From a virus (lineage: Duplodnaviria > Heunggongvirae > Uroviricota > Caudoviricetes): a stretch of 64,000 nucleotides of DNA. Made by a program: the position numbers and the translations under genes. Shown piece after piece: positions 1 to 13,542 of this stretch (the first letter of the stretch is position 1; each line of letters starts with the position of its first letter). The DNA lies in IMG/VR virus record IMGVR_UViG_3300023371_000005; one strand, 5' to 3'. The notes below the pieces were generated by a model that worked only from the letters and a program-made list of their open reading frames with translations, was not told the DNA's origin and made no database searches.

Positions 1-19
1 TCAATTCCGCCAGTTTCCC
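1..19 (-). tRNA. 5' part of a tRNA truncated by the window edge (Leu-type D arm)
   Basis: Minus strand reads GGGAAACTGGCGGAATTGA, like the intact Leu tRNA at 9243-9328. Confidence 0.6.
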
Positions 20-28
20 AAATTTATA

Positions 29-646
29 AACCTGATAAGTTTGCTGACCTTCGTCATACTCCCTATAACCTTCAACCATATTCAATCACCGGGGAGACAA
101 GTCTGAGCCTTCGGGAGCGACCCTAAGCTTCTTGCCCCAGTAGTTCTGACACACCAGAGGCGGCCTTTCCTACCCTATCCCGCAGAGGACTGATTGCCTC
201 TAACTTTCACTCGCCATTCAGAATTGTTTAAGTCTATTAAACCATACTATCTAAACAGCCCAATCTTTCTTCTCGTCGTTGCGATAGAGCTACTCGTACC
301 CTGACCTTACCTTATAGCCGGATTACTCCGACATCAACGCAGACTTCCTTATTGGTGTACCTTGGTCTGGAACAGTCACCAGCTAATCCCTAACAAGGCT
401 TATTCCCCACGGGGGCGTCTATTGCGGAAGCGATAAGACGGTATTTTTGATTGCGGTTATCTTTGCACTCCTCTCCATCCAGGCCCTCCCTTTGGAGGCG
501 GCTCTCTTATGTCACCACAAGAGAATCTACCTATTACCGGCTATCGTCGGTAAGATTGCTTTTCGGACTCCTGGTACCCACAGGCAGGATGAGGATCTCG
601 GCACGATGGTATTCGTTCTTCACCGAGTTGCAAACTTATCAAGGTT
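29..646 (-). ncRNA. Large structured ncRNA, ROOL-like
   Basis: ~16-bp closing helix (630-646 AACCTTGATAAGTTTGC with 29-44 GCAAACTTATCAGGTT), 618 nt, no credible ORF, inside a tRNA array. ROOL rather than GOLLD is judged from size and recalled 3' motifs only. Confidence 0.65.
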
Positions 647-716
647 CATGACAGTCATTAGTCGAAATCGCACTCACCAGGGTTATTCACCGGAGGGTTT
701 CTGTCAGGAGTGCTTC

Positions 717-794
717 AAGGCTCACTTTTTTCTCATACAGTTGGAGCGAGTTGCAGTCGCAAATTTTATGAATAAGAATTGCTGTTTGAGCCTT
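717..794 (-). ncRNA. Wrapper W1 enclosing a Cys(GCA) anticodon arm
   Basis: AAGGCTC-AA-ACAGCAA...GCGA-CTGCAAC-TCGC...GAGCCTT-G. Confidence 0.75.
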
Positions 795-802
795 ATATTT
801 AT

Positions 803-831
803 ATTATAACAAATTTTTTTTGAAAAGTCAA
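803..831 (-). promoter_or_regulatory. Sigma-A-type promoter driving W1 and the ROOL-like RNA
   Basis: TTGACT-17-TATAAT. Near-identical AT-rich promoters at 2002-2030, 2829-2857, 8001-8029, 9758-9785, 10060-10088, 10520-10548, 17133-17161 and others. Confidence 0.85.
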
Positions 832-1135
832 ATTTTTGGTGAAGGGTCATTATTCCCGTTGCCCCTTCGGCCGGTCGCGCAGAACACATTTCGGTTTTTG
901 GCCAGGTTGACCGCAAACCTGCCTCATGTGTTATTACACCAAAGGTCCGCCGTACGCATCGCACCACTCATTATAGGATGGCTACTTTCAAAGCCCACCT
1001 TTGAGGTTTTTCAGAGATTTATACTTGGTTCCCATCCAAGAACTCCTACTTTTGGCAACTCATAGGTTCGACACATTTTCGCATTTCTGGGGCAGCGGCC
1101 GATTAGGAACGTAACGCCATTATCCACTATGAGTT

Positions 1136-1209
1136 TGGCTCCCGCTGATGGACTCGAACCACCAAATGCAGAGTCAGAGTCTGCCGTTTTGCCATTAGAC
1201 TAAGCGGGA
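1136..1209 (-). tRNA. tRNA-Gln(CTG)
   Basis: Cloverleaf, GCAGA-CT CTG AC-TCTGC, CCA. Confidence 0.95.
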
Positions 1210-1221
1210 ATATAAATGTTC

Positions 1222-1284
1222 AAGACTCAGTTTCTGGTAGACAAGTTAAAAGGTTGTTCCAAAATAAATTGCTGTTAGAGTCTT
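1222..1284 (-). ncRNA. Wrapper W2 enclosing a Lys(TTT)-like anticodon arm
   Basis: AAGACTC-TA-ACAGCAA...ACAAC-CTTTTAA-CTTGT...GAGTCTT-G. Confidence 0.7.
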
Positions 1285-1312
1285 AGATGTTGAATGAATA
1301 TAAAAAGGCTTA

Positions 1313-1388
1313 TGGCTGGGGATAAGGGAGTCGAACCCCTACAGACCAGGAGTCAAAGTCCTGCGCGCTACCATTACGCCAATCCCCA
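1313..1388 (-). tRNA. tRNA-Gln(TTG)
   Basis: Cloverleaf, CAGGA-CT TTG AC-TCCTG, CCA. Confidence 0.95.
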
Positions 1389-1396
1389 ATATAAAC

Positions 1397-1505
1397 AAGG
1401 CACTTGAAGTCTATTGTACTACCGATTGTACTATTTTCTAAAATGGCTAGAAAAATGGGACTTGAACCCACAACACATAGAATGTGTAATTGCTGTATGT
1501 GCCTT
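1397..1505 (-). ncRNA. Wrapper W3 enclosing a circularly permuted Trp-like tRNA (possible UCA anticodon)
   Basis: 3' half (TCTAT, T arm, TTTTCTA-G-CCA) precedes 5' half (TAGAAAA, D arm, ATAGA-CTTCAA); all four stems pair. Confidence 0.8.
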
Positions 1506-1662
1506 TTATTTTATATGAACTTTACTTTTTTTACTTTCAAACACTTGGGACAGACATAAACATCATATTGCTGATCAATGACATTTGCTTCTGGGTCCCA
1601 CCATATTCGGACAGTCTTATGAAACTGCCATTCATGCTTACAAAATAAAGACCGTATCCAAC

Positions 1663-1977
1663 TTACCATAAATCCTCCGAATAGAGAGCGTGTGCGTTCT
1701 GGAAACGGTCATCAGAAGCCATTTTCTGCCAAAGCTCCGTGTTAGGAGAAAGCTGGCCAGAGAAATAAGCTGCGCGAGCCGCGTCATATCGATCAAGGAA
1801 TTGATCTTCATCAGTCAAGAAGCCTTGAACCATTGAGGATCGCTCATAATCAATGCGAAGCTGATACATCATTTCCAGCACGTCACAATGCTGGCGACCG
1901 CACATGATTTGAAAATATTCATGACCTTTTGGCTTGAATTTGATTGCGGCTGAAATAATTCTTGGCATCTTCTTCAA
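1663..1977 (-). CDS. Phage hypothetical protein
   Basis: 104 aa downstream of promoter 2002-2030; GFLT...LYSEDLW pattern recalled from phage proteins. Confidence 0.8.
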   Translation of the reverse strand: MKKMPRIISAAIKFKPKGHEYFQIMCGRQHCDVLEMMYQLRIDYERSSMVQGFLTDEDQFLDRYDAARAAYFSGQLSPNTELWQKMASDDRFQNAHALYSEDLW

Positions 1978-2046
1978 TTCCTTTCTTTATCTTATGTATA
2001 TATTATAACATATTTTTTTGAAAAAATCAAAGAAGATTTTTTATGC

Positions 2047-2182
2047 TAGACACATTAATTAAGACATTTGCTTGTTTTACAGACAAGTGAGTTTACCAAT
2101 TTCTCAAACTAACCTAAGGGCGGTTGGTATCGGACTCGAACCGATATTATTCTTAATAGAATAAATTTGCTGTGTGTGTCTA
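2047..2182 (-). ncRNA. Wrapper W4 enclosing a circularly permuted tRNA-Tyr(GTA)
   Basis: Variable arm, T arm and ACCAACC precede GGTTAGT, D arm and CTTGT-CT GTA AA-ACAAG. Confidence 0.8.
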
Positions 2183-2298
2183 TAAATATTTGAGAGTGCG
2201 TTTATTTGAATTGGCCTATCTCTCCACTTTATCGCCTGGACCAATTTGTCTGTTCGCACCAGACGGCTCACTAAGTTTATTTGACTGCCAAAGAAGGC

Positions 2299-2374
2299 TG
2301 GTCGAAATAACAGGACTCGAACCTGTGGCCTCTTCCACCCCAAGGAAGCGCGCTACCATCTGCGCCATATCTCG
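2299..2374 (-). tRNA. tRNA-Pro(GGG)
   Basis: CTTCC-TT GGG GT-GGAAG, CCA. Confidence 0.95.
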
Positions 2375-2463
2375 AAATAAGGCAGGCTGAAAACTACTCC
2401 CTGCCAGTCGGGCACAACTCCGAAGTTTTAGTATGTGCAGTTATGAGATAGTTTGCGTTATGC

Positions 2464-2540
2464 TGGTCCGAGTGGAGAGACTCGAACTCTCGGCCTCGTG
2501 ATCCCAAATCACGCGCTCTAGCCAAACTGAGCTACACCCG
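2464..2540 (-). tRNA. tRNA-Pro(TGG)
   Basis: CGTGA-TT TGG GA-TCACG, CCA. Confidence 0.95.
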
Positions 2541-2550
2541 GATATAAAAG

Positions 2551-2618
2551 GAGGAAGCGTTCTAAACCAACCTAAACTACAGGGCCCATGTTCGGATTTG
2601 AACCGAAGTTTCTTCCTC
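2551..2618 (-). ncRNA. Permuted tRNA-like element without wrapper
   Basis: GAGGAAG, T arm (TTCGG-TTCAAAT-CCGAA), weak acceptor, D arm, CTTCCTC; opened at the anticodon loop. Confidence 0.55.
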
Positions 2619-2619
2619 T

Positions 2620-2696
2620 TGGTGCTCCAGACTGGGATCGAACCAGTGACCTCACGATTATCAGTCGTGTACTCTAACCATCTGAGCTACTGGAGC
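2620..2696 (-). tRNA. tRNA-Ile(GAT)
   Basis: CACGA-CT GAT AA-TCGTG, CCA. Confidence 0.95.
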
Positions 2697-2702
2697 ATAT
2701 TC

Positions 2703-2820
2703 AAGGCAGGTAATTTTTCTGATTCTAACGGGAATTGAACCCGTCTCTTTTTCGTGGAAGGAAAATGTCATATCCAATAGACTATAGAACTTGAAAAAAG
2801 TTATTTGCTGTATCTGCCTT
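2703..2820 (-). ncRNA. Wrapper W5 enclosing a whole tRNA-Gly(TCC) (about 2721-2790, no CCA)
   Basis: AAGGCAG-AT-ACAGCAA...TTTTC-CT TCC AC-GAAAA...CTGCCTT-G. Confidence 0.8.
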
Positions 2821-2969
2821 ATGTATATATTATATCAAAAATTTTTTTGAAAATCAACTGTTGCGGGCCGCCTCAACCGCAACATAAAGCCCACCTAATT
2901 CTGATCCTTTTGGGCCCCATCCCCATATCCAGATTAGCGATTTGTCGCAAGAGTTCTGGAGGACTCTAT

Positions 2970-3046
2970 TGGTACGGGTTGAGGGACTCGAACCCCCGAC
3001 CTACTGGTTCGTAGCCAGGTACTCTATCCAACTGAGCTAAACCCGC
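2970..3046 (-). tRNA. tRNA-Arg(ACG)
   Basis: CTGG-CT ACG AA-CCAG, CCA. Confidence 0.95.
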
Positions 3047-3059
3047 ATATTTGTGCGGA

Positions 3060-3290
3060 TTAGACCGCACGGTTATACTCATCGAGGAACTTCATAAACT
3101 TGTCAGCACTTGCGTGATCAGGGGCAACAACATTTACTTCCTTGCCGAGAATGGTGAACAGAGCCAGAAGACTCTTGGCATCTAACTGACCATAATCAGT
3201 ACCGATGAAAATATTGAAATCCTGCTTACTTGCTAACTCACTGAAACGGAATAAATCTTCCTTGGTTTCAAACTTTACAGGTGTAACCAT
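3060..3290 (-). CDS. HPr-like protein
   Basis: 76 aa with QLDAKSLLAL (HPr Ser46 motif); no GLHARP His15 motif. Confidence 0.75.
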   Translation of the reverse strand: MVTPVKFETKEDLFRFSELASKQDFNIFIGTDYGQLDAKSLLALFTILGKEVNVVAPDHASADKFMKFLDEYNRAV

Positions 3291-3398
3291 CTTGAATTTC
3301 TCCTTTTCTTCAATTTAGGATTCGCGGTGTGCGCCATGGTCGCTTGAACTTAGCCAAGCTTCGACTTCGTAAGGGGCACCGTTACTCTACTCCCTAAG

Positions 3399-3475
3399 TG
3401 GTACGCCAGGAGGGATTCGAACCCCCGACCTACTGCTTAGAAGGCAGTTGCGCTATCCTACTGAGCCACTGGCGC
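3399..3475 (-). tRNA. tRNA-Arg(TCT)
   Basis: ACTGC-CT TCT AA-GCAGT, CCA. Confidence 0.95.
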
Positions 3476-3481
3476 ATATAC

Positions 3482-3559
3482 TAGACAGAAATTACTTTAA
3501 CATTTCTTAAACCCAAAATAAGCGTTTTTAGTAAAAAATATATTTGCTGTGTCTGTCTA
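3482..3559 (-). ncRNA. Wrapper W6 with degenerate cargo (Pro(TGG)-like anticodon arm)
   Basis: TAGACAG-AC-ACAGCAA...CTTAT-TTTGGGT-TTAAG...CTGTCTA-G. Confidence 0.65.
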
Positions 3560-3637
3560 TGGGGTGAGTGACCAGACTCGAACTGGCGATCTCCAGAGCC
3601 ACAATCTGGCGCTTTAACCAACTAAGCTACACCCACC
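3560..3637 (-). tRNA. tRNA-His(GTG)
   Basis: CCAGA-TT GTG GC-TCTGG, G-1, CCA. Confidence 0.95.
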
Positions 3638-3795
3638 ATATCAAAGAGGCATATGAGTGCGGTCTTCTCCCTACTTAGCTCTCCGCATCAGAGAGTACCT
3701 CTTTATCATATCTACCCTGCTACATGGACTATCCGCGTTTATGGCCAACTCTATCCATCTTGCACCGCTTCAACCATACCCCTCGATATGACTTT

Positions 3796-3871
3796 TGGAG
3801 TGGGTAACGGGATTCGAACCCGCGACCTTCTGAATGGCAATCAGATACTCTACCAACTGAGCTACACCCAC
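3796..3871 (-). tRNA. tRNA-Gly(GCC)
   Basis: TCTGA-TT GCC AT-TCAGA, CCA. Confidence 0.95.
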
Positions 3872-4006
3872 ATATGGTATCTCCGTAGCCAGCGCAGGTC
3901 CAGTGCGCTTGTGCCTCACTTTCCTAACCTACTCCCAATATTTGCGGGTATCAACGGCGAAAGAACTTTTCTATCTATATTGGCAAATGGAACCAACTAC
4001 GGAGAG

Positions 4007-4083
4007 TGGTGCGCACTACTGGATTCGAACCAGTGACCCCCTGCTTGTAAGGCAGATGCTCTAACCAGCTGAGCTAAGCGCGC
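4007..4083 (-). tRNA. tRNA-Val(TAC)
   Basis: CTGC-CT TAC AA-GCAG, CCA. Confidence 0.95.
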
Positions 4084-4218
4084 AAATTATAGGCTGTTTA
4101 TCAAATTCCATTTACCTCTGCTTCTGGTATGCTTGTAATCCCCTTTATTATGTTGAGCACTTTAGGTCTCAACCTTTTGGACTCAAACCTTTATCGGGCA
4201 AACTTCGAGGCACCTATA

Positions 4219-4295
4219 TGGAGCCCCGAGTCGGATTCGAACCGACGACCTTTTGATTACTAATCAAATGCTCTGGCCAACTGAGCTATCGGGGC
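4219..4295 (-). tRNA. tRNA-Thr(AGT)
   Basis: TTTGA-TT AGT AA-TCAAA, CCA. Confidence 0.9.
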
Positions 4296-4452
4296 ATATT
4301 CTCCTACGAGAATCTAGAATCGTAATAACTGCCTGGAGTATAACAGAGGGGTTTTAATTTCAATGCAACTCCTACATTCAAGATGTAGTGAGGAACAGCA
4401 CAACCTGCATGACACATTTACTTTCACGCCACTATCCCGCCCCTAAAGACGC

Positions 4453-4540
4453 TGGCGGAGGAGACAGGACTCGAACCTGCACGCCCTTGCGGACGAACGG
4501 TTTTCTAGACCGTGGCAGTACCAATTATGCTTACTCCTCC
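4453..4540 (-). tRNA. tRNA-Ser(AGA)
   Basis: ACGGT-CT AGA AA-ACCGT, long variable arm, G73, CCA. Confidence 0.88.
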
Positions 4541-4714
4541 ATATAATGCGACACTTACTGGCGGCCGCAAGCCCTTGGCGTTAGATGCCTGCGTGATGCA
4601 CCGGGTGAGCTTCTTAGGCGTCCGGGTTACCTACTCTGGCATATGACCTCCATTTTGGCGTGCTCTTTCCTACCTACACTATACATCACTAAGCAAATTG
4701 TACTTCTCTGCTCT

Positions 4715-4804
4715 TGGCGGACGTGGCTGGATTCGAACCAGCGGACCCCTTACGAGGTCGGCTCCTTAGCAGGGAGCTGGATTAAGCCTCTCTCCCACAC
4801 GTCC
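4715..4804 (-). tRNA. tRNA-Ser(GCT)
   Basis: GCTCC-CT GCT AA-GGAGC, long variable arm, CCA. Confidence 0.95.
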
Positions 4805-4822
4805 ATATGAGTAAGATTGCTC

Positions 4823-5845
4823 TTACTCTTTATCTTCTTTTTCCAGAAGATTTATAAAATCCCAAAAAGATAATTTAGGAATAGTTGTATTGAAAGCATA
4901 TTCTACATCTTCTGCATATAATTTTTTCATCATATCATTATATACTTTAGTTAGTAATTGCTCATTGAATTTAGGAATACAATACTTAAAATTTCGATAC
5001 CAATAACGGCATCCCTCTAAACTTTTTTCAAGACCTTTTTGATGGGTATATGCTTCGTAAAAGAAAATATATTGACAGATTAAATTTTCATATCCATACA
5101 CTTCAATAATAGAAGGATGAACACCGTTCGATAAAGCAATTTCAAGAGCATGAACTAAATTATACCCAAGACCATAATTCTCGGTATATTTAAACTCACC
5201 ATTATTTTTACGAGTAATAGAATTTCCATCGAATAATTCAGTTGTAATCGGCTTAGGAAATTCAAATAATTGAGTCTCATTTTTTCGTCGCTCTAATTCT
5301 GCACAAACTAATCGACAAGCTAAATTAAATCCAATATCTTCTGAATAATAATGATCAGAAATGAATCTAATATTATAATTTTTCAGAAAATCCAATCGAT
5401 AAATTTTTCCATGAATTTTATTATGCGCTGGACCAACATAGCCTATTTGACGAGTATCAGAAATACCTTCTCGACCACATGAAAATACTTTAATATCTGG
5501 ATGACGCAAAACCAAATCCATTAGCTGAATAAAATGAGTTGGAAAAGATAATACATCTCCTGCATCCAAAAACATAACATATTCAGTATCACTATGGTCT
5601 AAACCATATTGTCTTGCTTGACCTGGTCCTGAATTTTCAGATAATCGAAATAAAGTTATATCTACAAATGAAGTAAATAATTGAGGAATGTCATCATAGT
5701 TCACTTCGGTAGAACAATCATCAACTATGATAACTTTAATGCCCCAATCAAGGACAGTCTATGCGATTTCACCAATAGATAACAGAGTCGAAATTAAGCC
5801 TGCTCGATTATTATAAACAGGAATAATAATTGATAAATCTTGCAT
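4823..5845 (-). CDS. Family 2 glycosyltransferase (one in-frame TAG read as Gln)
   Basis: Reading through TAG at 5759-5761 restores the N-terminal IIIPVYN...IIVDDCS; later MFLDAGD and YYSEDIGF. Confidence 0.85.
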
Positions 5846-6134
5846 TATATTCCTCCGAAATTTTTCATTAGAAATAGCAGAGTAAAAAACAAACTCACCC
5901 GAGCCTAGATGTAAAAACTCTCTGCTATATAGTAGTTTTTGTTTCTATATATTTCGAGATATATAGAAAAGGATACGTTTCCGGCAGCCACATCGCGCTG
6001 TATATTTTTTATGAGGAGGCATAAAATGAAAAACACAATGACAAAAGTACCACAGAAAGGAAACCAATGATGTGGATCTCCTGATGCCGGTCTTGACGAT
6101 AGGGTTTTGATTATATAGTCTCCTATCCGACTAT

Positions 6135-6211
6135 TGGTGGGCCAGGGCGGGATTGAACCGCCGACACGTGGATTTTCAGTCCACTGCTACTACCTGCTGA
6201 GCTACCGGCCC
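6135..6211 (-). tRNA. tRNA-Phe(GAA)
   Basis: GTGGA-CT GAA AA-TCCAC, CCA. Confidence 0.95.
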
Positions 6212-6217
6212 ATATAC

Positions 6218-6335
6218 AAGACACATTGTTTGTTTTGCAAAATGTTGGACTCGAACCAACGACCTATTGTTTATCAGACAATTGCTCACCCATCTGAGCT
6301 AATCTCGCTACAAAGCTATTTGCTGTGAGTGTCTT
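6218..6335 (-). ncRNA. Wrapper W7 enclosing a whole tRNA-Ile(GAT) (6237-6308, no CCA)
   Basis: AAGACAC-TC-ACAGCAA...ATTGT-CT GAT AA-ACAAT...GTGTCTT-G. Confidence 0.8.
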
Positions 6336-6370
6336 TATGAACACAAACGAAAGGAGAATCATTATGATTC

Positions 6371-6446
6371 TGGTTGCGTGGGGTCGGACTCGAACCGACA
6401 ATCTCTAGCTTATGAGGCTAGTGAGTTACCATTTCTCTACCCCGCA
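6371..6446 (-). tRNA. tRNA(CAT), Met (subtype not resolved)
   Basis: CTAGC-CT CAT AA-GCTAG, CCA. Confidence 0.9.
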
Positions 6447-6447
6447 A

Positions 6448-6521
6448 TGGGTGCAGCCGGAGGATTCGAACCTCGTATCCAGGTTATGAGCCTAGTGTCC
6501 TACCATTAGACGACCACTGCA
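6448..6521 (-). tRNA. tRNA(CAT), Met or Ile2
   Basis: CTAGG-CT CAT AA-CCTGG, CCA. Confidence 0.85.
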
Positions 6522-6692
6522 ATATCTAAGGGGGAGTTTTTTCCGGTCGGAGCCCCCACGACCGCACATGAAAGGAAATGAACCGCAAAGTAGCGGGTGG
6601 CAAAGCGGAGAATATTTTATCGCAACAGTTTGCAACCCATTTTGAGAACTTCTCTTTGGCTATCCAGTACCAACGCGTATGACTGGCGCTTC

Positions 6693-6768
6693 TGGTCCCT
6701 CGAGCTGGACTCGAACCAGCGACATCCCGGGTATGAACCGAGTGCTCTACCAGCTGAGCTATCGAGGG
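6693..6768 (-). tRNA. tRNA-Met(CAT), elongator-like
   Basis: CTCGG-TT CAT AC-CCGGG, CCA. Confidence 0.9.
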
Positions 6769-6964
6769 ATATTGACTAGGTACAGTCCTGCGTTTCCTGT
6801 TTTAAGCCTGACTAACTATTCTAAGGGGGCAGTCCCTTGAATTCCAAAAATCCAGGAGCCTAGTCATCTGGTAAGTAGAGAAACTGTTCTTGAAACCTCA
6901 TGCATTTTTTACAAGGCTTTCAGTTTTTTATAGTCCGGACTGGGTTAGCTCAATCCCTCTACAA

Positions 6965-7041
<77 letters not shown>

Positions 7042-7208
7042 AAATAAATGATGTTGGACAGCTATCCTTTAATATGCTCTTAAGCCCTAGGGTCATATCA
7101 ACACCCAAAGCAGTTTCACCACCAAAACTTGCTACTTAAAAAAGCGATTCTTTCGTCTCCTCTTCCACGCCCAGGTTTTCCGCTACGAGGTACTGGGAAC
7201 ATACCTTA

Positions 7209-7284
7209 TGGCAGCTTCGACGGGGATCGAACCCGCGATCTTCAGTGTGACAGACTGACGAGCACTCCACTGCTCCACGAAGCT
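7209..7284 (-). tRNA. tRNA-Asp(GTC), second copy
   Basis: TCAGT-CT GTC AC-ACTGA, CCA. Confidence 0.9.
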
Positions 7285-7433
7285 ATATTAGTAAGTTTAC
7301 TTTGCTTCCTTATATAGCGTTTTCCACTAAGCCACATATCTAAGGCATCAGTATTGCTCTGCGTATCCCTAGCCGGTGGTAGTTTAACTTACAAATCCAT
7401 GTTAACGCTTTTACATAAAGCGGCCAAGCCGCA

Positions 7434-7509
7434 TGGTGACCCCGCCGGGATTCGAACCCGGATTATCGGCGTGAGAGGCCGACCTCCTAAACCGTTAGAG
7501 GACGGGGCC
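7434..7509 (-). tRNA. tRNA-Glu(CTC)
   Basis: TCGGC-CT CTC AC-GCCGA, CCA. Confidence 0.95.
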
Positions 7510-7784
7510 ATATGTGGCGCCGGTTGCCAGCGCCTTTGGGTGGACCAGGGTCTTTCGACCAGCCCAGGATTGCAGATGATATTCGCGACTATCATTTTAA
7601 CGGGCCTGCTCATTTGTTTTTCTCGCCCGGTTGGTTATAGGTAACACTCTTAAACCACCGCTTTACGTCCCTTACTCGTGCTGCGGCCGCACGCAACCTG
7701 TATTTCTTAGCCCAGTTTAGGCAAAGGTTTCGCCCCGGTATTTCCAGTTTTTTCTGGTTTTCCTTCTCCTGGTGGCTTACCATC

Positions 7785-7861
7785 TGGTGATCCCACGGAG
7801 GCTCGAACTCCGATTTCCACCTTGAAAGGGTGGTGTCCTATGCCGGTTAGACGATGGGACC
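7785..7861 (-). tRNA. tRNA-Glu(TTC)
   Basis: CCACC-CT TTC AA-GGTGG, CCA. Confidence 0.95.
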
Positions 7862-7862
7862 A

Positions 7863-7964
7863 TTATTCTTCATAAAGATAACGAGGGTCTTCCATAGCAT
7901 CATTCCATCCCTGGATTTCTGCCAGTTCATCAGATTGAATCTGAGTAGTGAAATCATCAAACAT
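7863..7964 (-). CDS. 33-aa acidic mini-protein (MFDDFTTQIQSDELAEIQGWNDAMEDPRYLYEE)
   Basis: First ORF after promoter 8001-8029, GAGAGG upstream; below the ORF-track cutoff. Confidence 0.55.
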   Translation of the reverse strand: MFDDFTTQIQSDELAEIQGWNDAMEDPRYLYEE

Positions 7965-8200
7965 ATTTCATTTACCTCTCTTTCTTTATCTTACATAAAT
8001 ATTATAACATATTTTTTTATAAAAATCAAGAAAGATTTTTTAGTTAGAATTGGCGCTAGCAACCAATATTGACGGCATCTTAGGTACCGACGCATAATGA
8101 AGACCATGCATTGAAGCCTACAACTGTTGTACTCGCACCGTTGTCGCGCCTGGTGTATTCTTGTCGATCCCACCTAGGAACCAGGCTCACCGTGAGCCAA

Positions 8201-8279
8201 TGGTGGATCATATCGGATTCGAACCGATCTGATATCCTGTCTGCCAGACAGGTGGCCACCCCAAGCAGCCCCATAACCC
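8201..8279 (-). tRNA. tRNA-Ala(GGC)
   Basis: CCTGT-CT GGC AG-ACAGG, CCA. Confidence 0.88.
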
Positions 8280-8432
8280 ATATAAAAGTGATTTTCAAGC
8301 AACGAGTAAAATCACAACCCCGTTGCGGCCAGTAGAGTTGTCAGCGGTACTCTGCCCATGGCGCTTCCCCGTAAGTACTAGGTCTTTAACTTATACCCGC
8401 AGTGACGGTACCTACTCAAACATCTGCGGTGC

Positions 8433-8519
8433 TGGTGGGGATAGTGGGACTCGAACCCACACGACCTCTCGGCCATCAGATTTTGAGTCTGACACGTCTA
8501 CCGATTCCATCATATCCCC
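8433..8519 (-). tRNA. tRNA-Leu(CAA)
   Basis: TCAGA-CT CAA AA-TCTGA, long variable arm, CCA. Confidence 0.95.
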
Positions 8520-8910
8520 ATGTGGCGGATTTTGATCCGAATTCCGCGAACTCTCATTCAAGAAAAACGCATTTCAGGGTGTGCACCCCCATCCGCAGCA
8601 TCACGGGTCCGGTTTCCATTTCTGGCTGAAGCCGATAACAAATAAATTACCCTCTATTCTTAGCACCCGATGTGGGCCGTTTGCCTCTCTCGGCGGGCAA
8701 CCTGCGAAAGTGTTTCTGGTTGACACATAACCTCCCAGTTTCGTTCAGAAGTTTTAGTTTTAGTCCAAACTTCTAAGCCAACACCCCTGCGAAAAATACT
8801 TGTAAATGACCAAACAACTTTAAGCCCAGTTTATAACAGAGTTATTGTCGTTATCCATAATCATAATAATAACCCCTCACCGGATAACTGGTTATAAAAA
8901 AACCGGAGAT

Positions 8911-9063
8911 TTCCCATACTGGATTCGAACCAGTATCACACCTATTACTTCGTGCGTTCTGCCATTAAACTAATGGGACTTTCATCTACATATGTGTTCC
9001 TTATGGGACTCGAACCCACATCTCTTGCCCTCAAGCCATTCTCCCTACTTAAACTAAAGGAAC
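8911..9063 (-). ncRNA. Two tandem tRNA-like elements with defective anticodon arms (8911-8979, 8996-9063)
   Basis: Acceptor, D and T arms intact; anticodon arms are CAC-N10-GTG and CTTG-AGGG-CAAG; no CCA. Confidence 0.65.
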
Positions 9064-9065
9064 TA

Positions 9066-9142
9066 TGGTGGACCCAACCGGATTCGAACCGGTAACCCCC
9101 TGCTTGCAAGGCAGGCGCTCTCCCAGTTGGAGCTATGAGCCC
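9066..9142 (-). tRNA. tRNA-Ala(TGC)
   Basis: CTGC-CT TGC AA-GCAG, CCA. Confidence 0.95.
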
Positions 9143-9242
9143 AAATATCGCAACTTATTTATGTTCTGATGGAGTTGCCAACCACCCAGACTTTCAATTA
9201 GTAGCCGATAATCTAAAAGAACTGCTCGGTTCCACGAGCGTG

Positions 9243-9328
9243 TGGTGAGGATAGAGGGACTCGAACCCGTCACCCCTTGCGGGACCGGAGCCTAAATCCG
9301 GCGCGTCTACCAATTCCGCCATATCCCC
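9243..9328 (-). tRNA. tRNA-Leu(TAG)
   Basis: CCGGA-TT TAG GC-TCCGG, long variable arm, CCA. Confidence 0.95.
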
Positions 9329-9498
9329 AAATGAGTGCCCCACGAGTTTTATTATACTCTCGACTCTGGGGCCGTAATTGAGAGTGCCATGGCTTATATT
9401 TACGAGAAACTACATGGCTGAAACCTCGGTGGTCCATATTTAGGGAGTACCACAGGCCCGAGTATTATTTTTTGAAAAGGTCTTAATACTTGACCTCT

Positions 9499-9574
9499 TG
9501 GCGAACGGTGAGGGACTTGAACCCCCGACAGGTAGGTTAACAGCCTACTGCTCTACCGACTGAGCTAACCGTCC
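9499..9574 (-). tRNA. tRNA-Asn(GTT)
   Basis: GTAGG-CT GTT AA-CCTAC, CCA. Confidence 0.95.
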
Positions 9575-9808
9575 ATATGTGTTGTAAGGTGAGAACATGA
9601 CAGTGAGTCGATATACTATCAGCTATTCTTCCCATTCCGTGAGAGGTTCTCAAAATACATTTTTCTGCCGATGTTCCTCGCCCCAGGACTTCGCTGATAG
9701 ACGGCCTGGGCACTTCACAAAGGGATACTCTTTGTATTTCCTTTACCTTACATATATATTATAACATATTTTTTTTGAAAATCAAATATGTTATATTTAC
9801 TTAGCTTC

Positions 9809-9990
9809 AAGACGGAGTTTTTTCGATCTTACGCTGCTCTACCAATCTAAGCTACACCCTTCATATCAGGGAACCGAAGTTCCCCTTAGTAGTCACCTAC
9901 GCCACCTTGCCAGGTGAGGGAAGGGTGGTTGGACTCGAACCAACGACCTGCGGCACCACAAGCTAATCTTTGAATCGCTGTTACCGTCTT
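9809..9990 (-). ncRNA. Wrapper W8 enclosing a circularly permuted tRNA-His(GTG)
   Basis: 3' half 9920-9961 precedes 5' half 9832-9862; perfect 8-bp GAAGGGTG/CACCCTTC acceptor. Confidence 0.8.
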
Positions 9991-10102
9991 TTATGGAAAA
10001 GGTTGTGTATGGAGAAAGAAAGTGAACCGTGCATTTCGCTTTCTTTACCTTACATATATATTATAACATATTTTTTTTTGAAAGTCAAAAAGAATTTTTG
10101 AC

Positions 10103-10474
10103 TTAGATTTCAGAGGCTCTTGCCTGAGTCTCTTCCTCTTCTTCCAAAATAAAGGAATGCTGCTCATATTCCTTAGATTCCAGGAAACTCTCTTCTACGA
10201 TGCGTTCATTAGCGCCCTCGCCAGTAGTGACCAAACCCTTGGGGAACTCACCACCGAAGATTTCTTCGGAGAGATCAACCCAGGTGCCATAGGGATAGAT
10301 AGCCTGGTCCACGTAACCCTCGGACAGCTCGCAGACCTCGTCGATATCATAAACACCGCCGCAACAGGCGCAGATGATAGTGTCGCCAAAAGCGATACCG
10401 GTAATCCAAGAGCCGGGTTCATCAATGTCATGGAACATGACCTGAGTAGGAGTATCAAAATGAGGCTTGTTCAT
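10103..10474 (-). CDS. Hypothetical acidic protein
   Basis: Own promoter 10520-10548 and GAAAGG RBS. Confidence 0.75.
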   Translation of the reverse strand: MNKPHFDTPTQVMFHDIDEPGSWITGIAFGDTIICACCGGVYDIDEVCELSEGYVDQAIYPYGTWVDLSEEIFGGEFPKGLVTTGEGANERIVEESFLESKEYEQHSFILEEEEETQARASEI

Positions 10475-10571
10475 AGTATCATTTCCTTTCTCAATCGTCT
10501 TTCTTTATCTTACATAAATATTATAACATATTTTTTTATAAAAATCAAGAAAGATTTTTTATCTAATTTTG

Positions 10572-10646
10572 TGGCAGGGCGACTAGGATTCGAACCTAGA
10601 TACACAGTTTTGGAGACTGTAGTCCTAGCCGTTGAACGATCACCCT
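10572..10646 (-). tRNA. tRNA-Trp(CCA)
   Basis: ACAGT-CT CCA AA-ACTGT, CCA. Confidence 0.95.
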
Positions 10647-10688
10647 GTATTTCGTGCGGGCGTCCCCGCACTATCCGAGTCTTCAAGA

Positions 10689-10775
10689 TTAGATGGCGTA
10701 AATCTCGGCTTCCATCTGAGCCTGCTTGACGAGTTGAGCCCACCAAGCATTCATCATCTTCTGGATCTTCTTCAT
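10689..10775 (-). CDS. 28-aa mini-protein (MKKIQKMMNAWWAQLVKQAQMEAEIYAI)
   Basis: AAGGGGG upstream of ATG, co-oriented with neighbours. Confidence 0.45.
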   Translation of the reverse strand: MKKIQKMMNAWWAQLVKQAQMEAEIYAI

Positions 10776-11009
10776 TGAGAAAAACCCCCTTTTTCAATTT
10801 TATTTGGGAGGCAATGGGATATCGGCACTACCTCCAAAACTCAATTTACGAGTTTGATTTTCTCTAAAATATTTTAGATTCATAAGATAATCTCTTATCT
10901 TGTATATATATTATAACAAATTTTTTATAAAAAATCAAATTTGTCACAATTAGCGAAGTAATATTTTTGAAAAGTCTGTGAGATAAATTGGGCGTTTCCG
11001 CCCAAAGTA

Positions 11010-11324
11010 TCACAGACCGAGACGCCGCATCAAATCATTGACGCGCTCTCTTTCCTCAGTAGTAATTTCTGCTGGCTGGAATGCTCCGGCCGCAACCACT
11101 ACATTAGGAGCATCATCTTCAAAGTTGAAATCTCCAGTAGTGGGATTATCAGAAATTGCCACAGGAACCTTAGGACAGGTCAAAGACAGTGCAATTTGAA
11201 TTCGCTCACCGTTTTCTGTCGCCCACACATACAGTTTTTTGTCGTAAGTTCCAATGAAATCAGAACCGAACGCTTCTTTTATTTTTTGTTCCACATTATT
11301 TTTTGCAATTTGCCCACGAGCCAT
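11010..11324 (-). CDS. Hypothetical protein
   Basis: 104 aa, AGGAG RBS. Confidence 0.75.
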   Translation of the reverse strand: MARGQIAKNNVEQKIKEAFGSDFIGTYDKKLYVWATENGERIQIALSLTCPKVPVAISDNPTTGDFNFEDDAPNVVVAAGAFQPAEITTEERERVNDLMRRLGL

Positions 11325-11337
11325 ATAAATTCTCCTT

Positions 11338-12060
11338 TTACACTAAAAATGTTTCTCCAAAAATCATTTCATAATTCATATTATCATATTCCCAATATGG
11401 AATTCGAACCAATGGAATATTATTTATAATAGCATAATTATTTTTTTCTGCATCTGATGCTTGAGTACGAGACAATTTACTACGCTCCCAATTACTTTCA
11501 TGATAATGTTGTTCACCATCATACTCAACTAGACGAATAATTTTATTACTATTATCTAAAATGGCAAAATCAAAGCGTTTTTGACCTAAATTTTCTGGTT
11601 TATATTCTCTAATATAAGAAATATGATATTCTTCTAAAATATCAATAATTTTTTGTTCACCTTTTGAAATCCTAGAAAAACATCCACAGCTAGTTGTATT
11701 ACCAGTTCGTAAGTCTGATCCACTAATTGATTTTATATTACCACATTCACATTTACAAATCCATTTTATACGACCAAAATTATCCCTTTCTGAGTCCATC
11801 TCAAGAACAGTAAGTTTACCGTAAACATTACCTTTTTCATCTTTAGCTAATGCTTCAAAAACTTTTTCATTTCTCAAGCAACCACAACTTTTCGTTGCTC
11901 CATTTTTGAGACTTAAACCAGCAATGGTTTTTATATTACCACATTCACATTTACAATCCCAGTATGGTCGTTTATGTCGTTTTGATGCTTCTATATTTTT
12001 TGATAAAACAGTAAGTCTATGATAGGTATTACCAACAAGATTTTCACCAGTTTTTGGCAT
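11338..12060 (-). CDS. Putative free-standing homing endonuclease (CxCxCG repeats plus Vsr/PD-(D/E)xK-like domain)
   Basis: Two W.CKCECGN...KSCGC repeats, then RFDF...VEYDGEQH; AT-rich. Confidence 0.7.
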   Translation of the reverse strand: MPKTGENLVGNTYHRLTVLSKNIEASKRHKRPYWDCKCECGNIKTIAGLSLKNGATKSCGCLRNEKVFEALAKDEKGNVYGKLTVLEMDSERDNFGRIKWICKCECGNIKSISGSDLRTGNTTSCGCFSRISKGEQKIIDILEEYHISYIREYKPENLGQKRFDFAILDNSNKIIRLVEYDGEQHYHESNWERSKLSRTQASDAEKNNYAIINNIPLVRIPYWEYDNMNYEMIFGETFLV

Positions 12061-12135
12061 AAAAATATCACTCTCCTTCTATCTTTTATGATTTTTCAGA
12101 TAAAAAGATTGAAAATTTTTACCCAGAACTTTTTA

Positions 12136-13542
12136 TCAAAAATATTTTTTATTCCTTCCGCCTTCATTCCTATTTTCGTAGCAATGAGGACATAAATATG
12201 TTTCAGTTTCTTCACAGTAAATCTTATCTGAGTTGTAATATATGTAATCACACTCTTCGCAGCGGAAACACTCTGTGTCATAACACTGTTGACAGATCAA
12301 TTCTTCATTATCTCCAGCCACATATGCATCATCCACATACATACGACGACCGCAACAAGCGCAATGAGTATAATTTTCATTCTCTTCTACGCCATATGCC
12401 AACTCGCAATTATCACATCGCATTGTTTCTGAATTATCTACCCAGTCTTTGCCGCAATGTAGACAAGGCACAGAACCGCCCACTACAATGGGCTTTTCAA
12501 TCAACTTTCTTACACCGCTTCGGCTCAAAGTATTATTGAAAATCGCATAATAAGGATAGCGATAACAAGTAGAACGAAGAATGTCATTATAATTACGAGC
12601 ATATCTGCCTTCTACAACTACCTCTTGGAGTGGAGCTAAGAATCCGTTGACGATTACATACTGACAATTTAATGCCCGAGGATTGTCCTCAGGATTAGCA
12701 TCATGCGGGACATAACTGTCGATATAGTCATCTTTCCAGTTGAAATACTTATAATAGCCGAATGGATGTTCTTGTTGAATCAGATTATTATAAATATTCA
12801 GTACGGTATCAATTCCACTTTTAGAGCTAAATGGATACTGGCGTCCCGCAAACATGATAGTGCTGTCTTCATGCTCATGAATCAACATACGCCACTTCTT
12901 AGAGTTCCACTTTACAGAACCAAAGTTAGGAAGTTCTGCTTCATCCATGCCTTTGAGATAAACCATAAAGGTAGTGCGGTCAGTCATATAACTCAGATTA
13001 CCAGCACGATATTCTCCATCGAGGGCATGGCAACTGCGCCAGTTATATGTGTTCTCGCTACTGGACAGAAAATCCAAAGGATGAACTGAAAAACATAACT
13101 TACCCTTGATTTTATTCTCTTGGATAAGCTGGCTCGCTGCGTCCTGAATATTTCTCAGGGTTATGGGATTATGTTCAAAATACTTAAATGCCTTCAGTAG
13201 CTTCATTCCCTTTGGAATGTCACTACCTTCACATACATTTACAACTTTATTTTCAAAAAATCCATCCAGATTTTCATCAATAAACTCAGCCAAAACAGGA
13301 TTATTGAAAGTATCATAAACCTGGGTAGCAAAATCAGCTGCCCGACATCTCTTTTCCTTTTCATCCAAAGTAAATTCAATGGGTTCCGGCCATTCATAAA
13401 TCAAACCGCCGAATCTCTCAATAAACTTTTCCTTGGCAAGCTCCCAGTCGTGGAATAGAGCATCCACCTGGGGATCGGGAATTGATTGAGAATAACGAAT
13501 TACTTCGCAGAACTGTTCTTTGATTCTGTCGATTTCTCGCAT
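12136..13542 (-). CDS. Hypothetical protein, HPLDFL...W.SC family, C-terminal CxxC array
   Basis: Paralog of 17163-18758; start moved to the ATG after GGAGG. Confidence 0.75.
   Translation of the reverse strand: MREIDRIKEQFCEVIRYSQSIPDPQVDALFHDWELAKEKFIERFGGLIYEWPEPIEFTLDEKEKRCRAADFATQVYDTFNNPVLAEFIDENLDGFFENKVVNVCEGSDIPKGMKLLKAFKYFEHNPITLRNIQDAASQLIQENKIKGKLCFSVHPLDFLSSSENTYNWRSCHALDGEYRAGNLSYMTDRTTFMVYLKGMDEAELPNFGSVKWNSKKWRMLIHEHEDSTIMFAGRQYPFSSKSGIDTVLNIYNNLIQQEHPFGYYKYFNWKDDYIDSYVPHDANPEDNPRALNCQYVIVNGFLAPLQEVVVEGRYARNYNDILRSTCYRYPYYAIFNNTLSRSGVRKLIEKPIVVGGSVPCLHCGKDWVDNSETMRCDNCELAYGVEENENYTHCACCGRRMYVDDAYVAGDNEELICQQCYDTECFRCEECDYIYYNSDKIYCEETETYLCPHCYENRNEGGRNKKYF

Follow-up and report, generated by a model that had tools for sequence, protein, structure and literature searches.

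Small RNAs sharing an ACAGCAA handle in the tRNA arrays of large gut phages look like the RNA part of a phage Ro/Y-RNA particle

Eight elements in a phage tRNA array

The DNA considered here is a 64,000-nucleotide (nt) window, the whole stretch analyzed, of the IMG/VR virus record IMGVR_UViG_3300023371_000005 (Caudoviricetes), which derives from a large gut or rumen phage. The minus strand of positions 1-10,700 carries a tRNA array in which ARAGORN identifies 29 tRNAs, and strong sigma-70-type promoters (consensus matches only) appear to drive it. Interspersed with these genes are eight copies, designated W1 to W8, of an element whose ends pair in a short stem beside an ACAGCAA box and whose interior varies from a plain hairpin to a whole tRNA. 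An initial sequence-only reading described these copies as a "wrapper" around tRNA-derived cargo and proposed that the wrapper directs processing or circularization of whatever it encloses. The analyses described below suggest otherwise: the wrappers look like the phage version of the Ro/Y-RNA particle, and not like a signal for cutting or for making circles. The elements, and the promoters located directly before two of them, are as follows.

716-794, minus strand: W1, 79 nt; AAGGCUC-AA-ACAGCAA ... GAGCCUU-G; cargo an irregular hairpin
803-831, minus strand: sigma-70-type promoter, TTGACT-17-TATAAT with TG; 11 of 12 matches; consensus match only
1221-1284, minus strand: W2, 64 nt; AAGACUC-UA-ACAGCAA ... 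GAGUCUU-G; cargo a short hairpin
1396-1505, minus strand: W3, 110 nt; handle and a tRNA-like domain in YrlA order
2046-2182, minus strand: W4, 137 nt; handle and a permuted tRNA-like domain
2702-2820, minus strand: W5, 119 nt; handle around a whole tRNA-Gly(UCC)-like unit at 2720-2791
2829-2857, minus strand: sigma-70-type promoter with TG; 10 of 12 matches; consensus match only
3481-3559, minus strand: W6, 79 nt; UAGACAG-AC-ACAGCAA ... CUGUCUA-G; cargo a hairpin
6217-6335, minus strand: W7, 119 nt; handle around a whole tRNA-Ile(GAU)-like unit at 6236-6308
9808-9990, minus strand: W8, 183 nt; AAGACGG-UA-ACAGCGA ... CCGUCUU-G; cargo a YrlA-like tRNA mimic

The pattern AGRCNNNNACAGCRA finds eight matches in the window, all on the minus strand and spanning 716-9990, while shuffles yield a mean of 0.10 and a maximum of one. 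All eight copies reported initially, together with their coordinates, are thus recovered, save that each start had been placed 1 nt short because the 3' G was omitted. Each copy, 64 to 183 nt in length, possesses a perfect 7-base-pair (bp) complement followed by a G, as had been described, and the box reads ACAGCAA in W1 to W7 and ACAGCGA in W8. The cargo classes proposed at the outset likewise hold, with a whole tRNA in W5 and W7, a permuted order (T arm, acceptor hairpin, D arm) in W3, W4, and W8, and irregular hairpins in W1, W2, and W6. Specifically, W3 presents an anticodon-type stem, a T arm, an acceptor hairpin encoding G-CCA-UUU, and a D arm; W4 retains its anticodon arm (GUA) intact and has an extended helix of the variable type; and the acceptor hairpin of W8 carries a 57-nt insert.

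The location of several copies bears on how they may be produced. W1 is the first element after the promoter at 831-803, the -10 box of which ends 8 nt before the W1 stem, such that transcription is predicted to start at or near the initial base of W1; W5 is similarly situated, its stem lying 8 nt past the end of the -10 box in the promoter at 2857-2829, which places the W5 start at about +1. W2 is flanked by two tRNA-Gln genes, while W6 stands between tRNA-His and tRNA-Arg, its 5' end adjoining the CCA of the former and its 3' G located 5 nt ahead of the latter. Orthologues with identical stems exist for W2 (in the record designated L033) and for W8 (in L033 and L035), and orthologues of W6 are present in both of these records. 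Directly downstream of W1, under the promoter at 831-803, is a ROOL RNA (26-651, minus strand; 323 bits), the contig depth of which is the greatest by a wide margin in four metatranscriptome runs from animal gut.

Spread and covariation of the handle

A second IMG/VR contig, L011, is 100% identical to window positions 1-3641, extends 14 kb beyond them, and adds three copies, bringing the total for this phage genome to 11 copies over approximately 20 kb of tRNA array; a related 402-kb record contains 20. A pattern scan of viral contigs located the motif in at least 117 stretches. Within 23 nearly complete phage genomes of 120-240 kb, two to seven copies are present in each, nearly all on one strand, while a reversed control pattern is found zero to one times. 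Bacterial genome contigs containing the motif are mostly metagenome-assembled contigs of gut Clostridia that are phage-like in appearance, and two bacterial isolates, Mycolicibacterium sp. S2-37 and Moryella indoligenes, contain it as well.

The collection totals 430 unique copies, drawn from over 100 contigs of large gut and rumen phages together with some bacterial genomes. Because the cargo is too variable to align by reference, the handle was counted using regular expressions with permutation controls. In testing covariation, the 3' side was set solely by NNGYCUWG, so the test is not circular, and permuted partners served as the control. The 3' motif is present for 398 of the 430 unique 5' motifs, and the two free stem positions both pair in 373 of these 398, as compared to a mean of 105 and a maximum of 126 for permuted partners. 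Pairs of the types A-U, G-C, U-A, and C-G occur at stem position 6 and C-G, G-C, U-A, A-U, and U-G at position 7, so that all four Watson-Crick pair types are seen at both, and positions 1 and 4 switch together. Outside of the stem, conservation is limited to the box (ACAGCAA in 97% of 292 copies), the G at the 3' end, and a brief segment rich in A ahead of the 3' strand, while the interior ranges from that of a 36-nt element to approximately 400 nt and has no shared core. These counts, and the variety of the cargoes, support the initial suggestion of a covarying, modular element that does not depend upon what it encloses.

Extension of the conserved structure was also considered. A general second helix immediately following ACAGCAA was rejected, as it was found 131 times versus 113 in shuffled controls (maximum 126) and is thus barely above them; an eighth base pair occurs in 56% of copies versus 43% expected. 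The handle, consisting of the 7-bp end stem and the ACAGCAA box, is common to what is apparently a large and undescribed family of small phage RNAs; a literature search on ACAGCAA, DUF2828, or Ro-like proteins with partner RNAs found no paper describing such a family.

A Ro60-fold protein encoded with the elements

In Mycolicibacterium sp. S2-37, three tandem elements, around which no tRNA is found for 8 kb, are located at a distance of 1.1 kb from the gene for a 492-amino acid (aa) protein with matches to DUF2828, DUF7788, and, weakly, a vWA domain. DUF2828 is present in 29 of 31 motif-bearing genomes (25 of the 26 nearly complete phage records) versus none of 14 controls, and the single occurrence among 401 sampled Actinobacteria is in the motif-bearing Mycolicibacterium itself. 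The corresponding DUF2828/DUF7788 protein of the phage under study (503 aa) is encoded at L011:14206-15717, on the array strand and approximately 10.5 kb beyond the window start. When grouped at 50% identity, the family as a whole comprises 9,742 clusters; 710 catalogued phages encode a member, and some mycobacteriophage records label it "Ro-like RNA binding protein".

A single-sequence model of the protein was unusable (predicted local distance difference test score, pLDDT, of 41) and was replaced by an AlphaFold2 model built from a 118-sequence alignment (pLDDT 94.1; predicted template-modeling score 0.93). The 13 best PDB matches of this model in Foldseek are all Ro60/TROVE structures, matched over their full length with E values of 5e-8 to 3e-5, and they include Xenopus and human Ro60, Deinococcus radiodurans Rsr, and the protein of Thermus phage phiLo. 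Alignment to Xenopus Ro with VIA-align gives a Z score of 20.4 over 419 residues at 4.2 Å, while vWA-only proteins score approximately 10, and the DxSxS sequence of the MIDAS (metal ion-dependent adhesion site) is invariant. Since sequence and profile searches of PDB chains with the protein family returned no Ro60, the relationship is visible by fold only. As modeled, the phage protein is of the Ro60 fold, with a TROVE-type helical ring and a vWA domain bearing a MIDAS site.

A canonical TROVE-family partner had also been sought and was dropped, as 43 of 44 phage records, and all five of the motif-bearing bacterial genomes searched, have no match to Pfam TROVE (PF05731). The single weak match in this set belongs to a 396-aa open reading frame (ORF) of the motif-bearing phage L153 (G042:C1:246-467; E 3.8e-5), which is present in addition to the DUF2828 gene of that phage.

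The genes for the RNAs and the protein are linked. Upstream of the protein gene and co-oriented with it, the nearest element is found at a distance of no more than 6 kb in 17 of 23 phage genomes, and in seven of these within approximately 500 nt; many phages have one to six elements on the gene strand at 26-500 nt upstream. A reciprocal test began with 80 viral loci picked by the protein alone (42-100% identity), 70 of which include at least 3 kb of upstream sequence. Complete elements were found at 49 of these 70 loci: 93 upstream on the gene strand, none downstream, and none on the opposite strand. When elements are defined more loosely, 134 lie on the gene strand versus seven on the other. 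FelixO1 and the mycobacteriophage Faith1 carry four and three unannotated ACAGCAA-handle hairpins, respectively, downstream of the gene (just downstream in FelixO1), with handle stems that differ slightly in sequence from those of the window.

Cargo modules and the relation to YrlA

Whether the motif matches an existing Rfam family had been left open in the sequence-only reading. A permissive search (cmscan at E<=1 of window positions 1-11000, and of L011 for W10) shows that Rfam 15 has no such family as such, and that three copies resemble YrlA (RF02553) below threshold: W8 (43.7 bits, E 3.5e-7, full model), W3 (31.7 bits, model positions 1-114 of 114), and W10, located in L011 (40.8 bits, whole model). 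The remaining copies have no YrlA match at E<=1. In all three alignments the wrapper stem falls on the closing helix of the model, the presumed Ro-binding site. The "permuted tRNA" of the initial description is in fact the known YrlA layout of T arm, acceptor-like hairpin, and D arm; YrlA RNAs have been shown to possess the same permuted tRNA-like order and an internal CCA (Chen et al., 2014; PMC4201824). The encoded G-CCA-U(n) of W3-type acceptor hairpins fits with these data, as the YrlA of Mycobacterium smegmatis is cleaved by RNase P and receives CCA (PMC4201824).

Comparison of orthologues shows that the tRNA-like stems persist and that an anticodon loop does not. Three W3 orthologues share a covarying 5-bp anticodon-type stem (AUAGA/UCUAU, ACAAA/UUUGU, and ACUAA/UUAGU) with a 5-nt variable loop, while the linker to the wrapper, which would constitute the anticodon loop, reads CUUCAA, UUAA, or AAG, so that no anticodon loop is conserved. 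Anticodon loops of the W4 type contain GUA, GAU, or CCA. The free tRNAs have an ATAT leader, and the whole tRNAs wrapped in W5 and W7 possess neither this leader nor an encoded CCA, while CCA is encoded by 24 of the 30 tRNA-model hits in the window. Most tRNA genes in the window (minus strand) carry ATAT just ahead of position 1; the leader is conserved and may indicate a preference in processing. Outside the window, L011 encodes ordinary tRNA-Tyr, tRNA-Cys, and tRNA-Lys as well as a CUA suppressor, and the wrapped cargoes are therefore not the sole source of such tRNAs for the phage. Judged by these sequence features, the wrapped elements do not appear to be decoding tRNAs.

Across 292 elements, a sample biased toward T-loop copies because the scans demanded a T loop, a tRNA signature is lacking in 39%, limited to a T loop in 30%, permuted in 24%, and that of a whole tRNA in 6.5%. 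The T arm precedes the D arm in 71 of the 292, and the permuted form is thus only a subset of the family.

A probable Y-RNA-like partner of the phage Ro60-like protein

Taken together, the shared handle, its covariation, and its linkage to a Ro60-fold protein make it probable that the W elements are Y-RNA-like partner RNAs, each combining a common protein-binding handle with exchangeable tRNA-mimic modules. Each element would be a small non-coding RNA of approximately 60-180 nt transcribed within the tRNA array, with ends probably set either by a promoter (W1 and W5) or by processing of the flanking tRNAs (W6 and W7); the abutment of W6 to the tRNA-His CCA and its termination 5 nt before tRNA-Arg suggest release in the latter manner. 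The ends would pair as the 7-bp stem WAGRCNN/NNGYCUW, followed by an unpaired G, with the 5' strand continuing to ACAGCAA in an internal loop. We infer that this stem and box form the binding site of the Ro60-like (DUF2828/DUF7788) protein. The variable interior, whether a YrlA-type tRNA mimic, a CCA-less whole tRNA, or a plain hairpin, would serve as an effector module in the manner of Y RNAs. One possibility is that it tethers the ring protein to enzymes that handle tRNA or that decay or repair RNA; another is that it gates the access of the protein to RNA substrates. In a phage that encodes its own tRNAs, the likeliest role would be surveillance of tRNA or other RNA during infection.

The Ro60 (Rsr)/Y RNA systems, including YrlA/YrlB, Yrn1, and Yrl1/Yrl2 of phiLo, resemble the phage system in several respects. 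Each consists of small RNAs, often several paralogues per genome, with an end stem beside a conserved loop motif and a variable module that is often a tRNA mimic in permuted (YrlA) or normal (Yrn1) order; some acceptor-like hairpins encode CCA, and the RNA genes lie beside, and on the same strand as, the gene for a ring-plus-vWA protein of the Ro60 fold. D. radiodurans Yrn1, in which the tRNA-like part is in normal order with the Ro-binding stem at the acceptor position, matches W5 and W7. Thermus phage phiLo has been found to encode Y-like RNAs, with an end stem and a bulge motif, upstream of a phage Ro60 gene (PMC12135203). Of a YrlA RNA one would expect a location within approximately 4 kb of a gene for a TROVE-domain Ro60 orthologue on the same strand; here the gene linked on the same strand is that of the Ro60-fold DUF2828 protein. 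The phage system differs in that one genome can have 11 copies scattered in a tRNA array, and the modules of the family include some whole tRNAs and many plain hairpins.

Several observations weigh against this interpretation. The Pfam matches of the protein are to DUF2828 and DUF7788 only, and its sequence gives no match to Pfam TROVE, a further difference from known Ro60 systems. The handle, WAGRCNN-NN-ACAGCAA...NNGYCUW-G, differs from GNCGAAN0-1G, the site near the 5' end of YrlA that is proposed to bind Rsr/Ro60 (PMC4201824), and the YrlA scores of W3, W8, and W10 are all below the Rfam gathering score of 69. No element is present in the fetched sequence at 20 of 80 protein-picked loci under the looser definition or at 21 of 70 under the stricter one, and in the genome under study the gene is not adjacent but lies approximately 6.3 kb past the last element, outside the window. 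Because elements and tRNA arrays are frequently found in one region, the linkage could in part be regional. In favor of the interpretation, animal gut metatranscriptome contigs cover W2, W3, W5, and W6, which is weak evidence of expression; these contigs, however, are assemblies of related phages and indicate presence only, not discrete RNAs, ends, strand, or levels. The uncovered stretch 5056-5729 does not constitute a clean silent control, as relatives may lack the gene located there.

Alternative explanations

As originally proposed, the stem and ACAGCAA could be a processing signal of the polycistronic tRNA array, acted upon by a host or phage endonuclease or by a circularizing ligase. Most elements do sit between tRNAs, and the ends of W6 and W7, which abut tRNA ends, must for that reason arise by cleavage. 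However, elements also occur without a tRNA array, in Mycolicibacterium and Faith1, and track the Ro60-like gene rather than tRNAs; W1 and W5 are located at predicted transcript starts, with nothing upstream to remove; and most of the tRNAs that ARAGORN calls in the array (25 of 27) have no wrapper. Moreover, circularization of W3-type orthologue cargo would not yield a 7-nt anticodon loop. We consider a processing signal unlikely, and neither circularization of the cargo nor maturation of a permuted tRNA finds evidence in these data; the W3- and W4-type anticodon loops are not conserved among orthologues. The red and green algal circularly permuted tRNA genes, which mature via a circular intermediate, share with the permuted elements a T-arm half preceding the D-arm half and a helix joining the RNA ends, but the phage elements possess neither a bulge-helix-bulge motif nor a conserved anticodon loop after notional joining, and the wrapper also encloses non-tRNA RNAs. 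The suggestion that the motif is a site for a protein fares better in part: its sequence conservation does point to a protein partner. It has also been proposed that the motif is a small self-cleaving or self-ligating ribozyme. Theta- and hammerhead-type small ribozymes occur near tRNAs in gut phages, and the handle is a conserved structured motif in such a location. Yet no Rfam ribozyme family matches window positions 1-11000 even at E<=1, the conserved part amounts to only seven loop nt and a 7-bp stem, and linkage to a Ro60-fold RNA-binding protein is the simpler account; we regard a ribozyme as scarcely probable.

Two further possibilities concern what the RNAs would do. The frequent placement of elements closely upstream of the Ro60-like gene would be expected if they were cis-regulatory leaders or operators by which the protein controls its own operon, and not stand-alone RNAs. 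This is quite improbable, given that the 11 copies in the present genome are distributed over the tRNA array at 6-20 kb from the gene, that some copies have their own promoters or lie between tRNAs that are processed away, and that the elements of FelixO1 and Faith1 are downstream of the gene; autoregulation could nevertheless exist alongside a partner-RNA role. Equally, the tRNA-containing elements could be unusual permuted or clamped tRNA genes that mature to decoding tRNAs, with a wrapper that stabilizes the precursor only. Perfect acceptor stems, the internal CCA of W3-type copies, and the intact anticodon arms of W4, W5, and W7 are compatible with such a role. It is made very unlikely by the approximately 39% of elements without any tRNA feature, by anticodon loops that are absent or vary among orthologues, by the missing CCA and ATAT leader of the wrapped whole tRNAs, and by the presence of normal Gly-UCC, Ile-GAU, and Tyr-GUA tRNAs in the same genome.

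A possible link to vaults

The eukaryotic vault consists of a shell of major vault protein (MVP), the protein TEP1 (TROVE, vWA, and other domains), and vault RNAs. Of 26 motif-bearing phage genomes, 13 encode an MVP_shoulder domain, in most cases 2.4-4.5 kb downstream from the gene for the Ro-like protein. In one clade of large gut phages, to which relatives of the phage under study belong, a full-length MVP gene begins within approximately 170-500 nt after the Ro-like gene, with the small RNAs upstream. In L218, for example, a single strand carries tRNAs and W elements, the Ro-like gene (5992-7521), MVP (7693-10185), and then two more genes. These comprise, at 10503-12229 (plus strand), a gene for a cREC_REC (cyclic-phosphate processing receiver) protein and, further on, one for a calcineurin-like metallophosphoesterase, and thereby place the Ro-like/MVP pair in an RNA-end-repair context.

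MVP lies within 6 kb at 15 of the 80 protein-picked loci, always co-oriented, and is therefore a clade-specific neighbor and not a core part of the system; in the portions of FelixO1, Faith1, and KVP40 that were read, none of the annotated genes near the Ro-like gene is an MVP gene, and the Rfam Vault family has no match in window positions 1-11000 at E<=1. In the preprint in which phage MVPs were first reported, a BLAST search did not find TEP1 (bioRxiv 10.1101/2023.11.10.566534). The likeness to the vault is that genes for a TROVE-fold/vWA protein, for MVP, and for small end-stem RNAs adjoin in the gut phage clade; the differences are that the association is known from gene adjacency alone and that no sequence motif is common to the W handle and vault RNAs. 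It is conceivable, if rather unlikely, that MVP joins the TROVE-fold/vWA protein and the ACAGCAA-handle RNAs in a single particle, a viral counterpart of the vault, in this clade of large gut and rumen phages. During infection, such a particle would house or protect tRNA-like RNAs or reactions of RNA repair, and the linkage would provide a first genetic handle on why some phages encode a vault shell protein.

The Ro60/Y RNA particle, composed of a conserved ring protein and small RNA, is a human autoantigen whose mechanism is understood in only a few bacteria. The phage RNAs and their protein would represent a much larger sister system, with a handle that is sharply defined and easily mutated, modules ranging from a hairpin to a complete tRNA, and several partner RNAs per genome (11 in the present case). 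Its presence in FelixO1, KVP40, Listeria phages, and mycobacteriophages, all of which can be grown in the laboratory, renders RNA binding and function directly testable. With respect to annotation, it would account for "permuted" or "clamped" tRNA-like genes in phage tRNA arrays that are otherwise called aberrant tRNAs.

Other features of the array

Megablast of the array against catalogued phages returned only a tRNA-sized match. Inside the array, a gene for a family-2 glycosyltransferase with an in-frame TAG (4823-5848, minus strand) is without relatives in viral contigs and is not covered by the RNA-library contigs. Two tRNA-like genes on the minus strand (8910-8979 and 8995-9063) were missed by ARAGORN but score 40.8 and 38.6 bits, respectively, with the Rfam tRNA model; both have odd anticodon arms and no encoded CCA. 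Between tRNA-Glu genes, a match to the DUF3800-XI RNA is located at 7531-7566 (minus strand; 47.6 bits, gathering score 37.8). Spacers of 130-170 nt between successive tRNAs at 3637-4714 (minus strand), which have neither an ORF nor an Rfam match, may be further structured RNAs; the depth of the RNA-library contigs is high over 3371-4381. In L011, a partial match to the OLE RNA model (9192-9281, plus strand; 52.9 bits, gathering score 50; model positions 436-595 of 616) directly follows tRNA-Lys. Finally, genes for an EcoRI-type adenine methylase and a GmrSD-N/HNH nuclease (L011, 11694-14083, plus strand) lie between the array and the Ro60-like gene, and may be a mobile insert that separated the RNAs from that gene.

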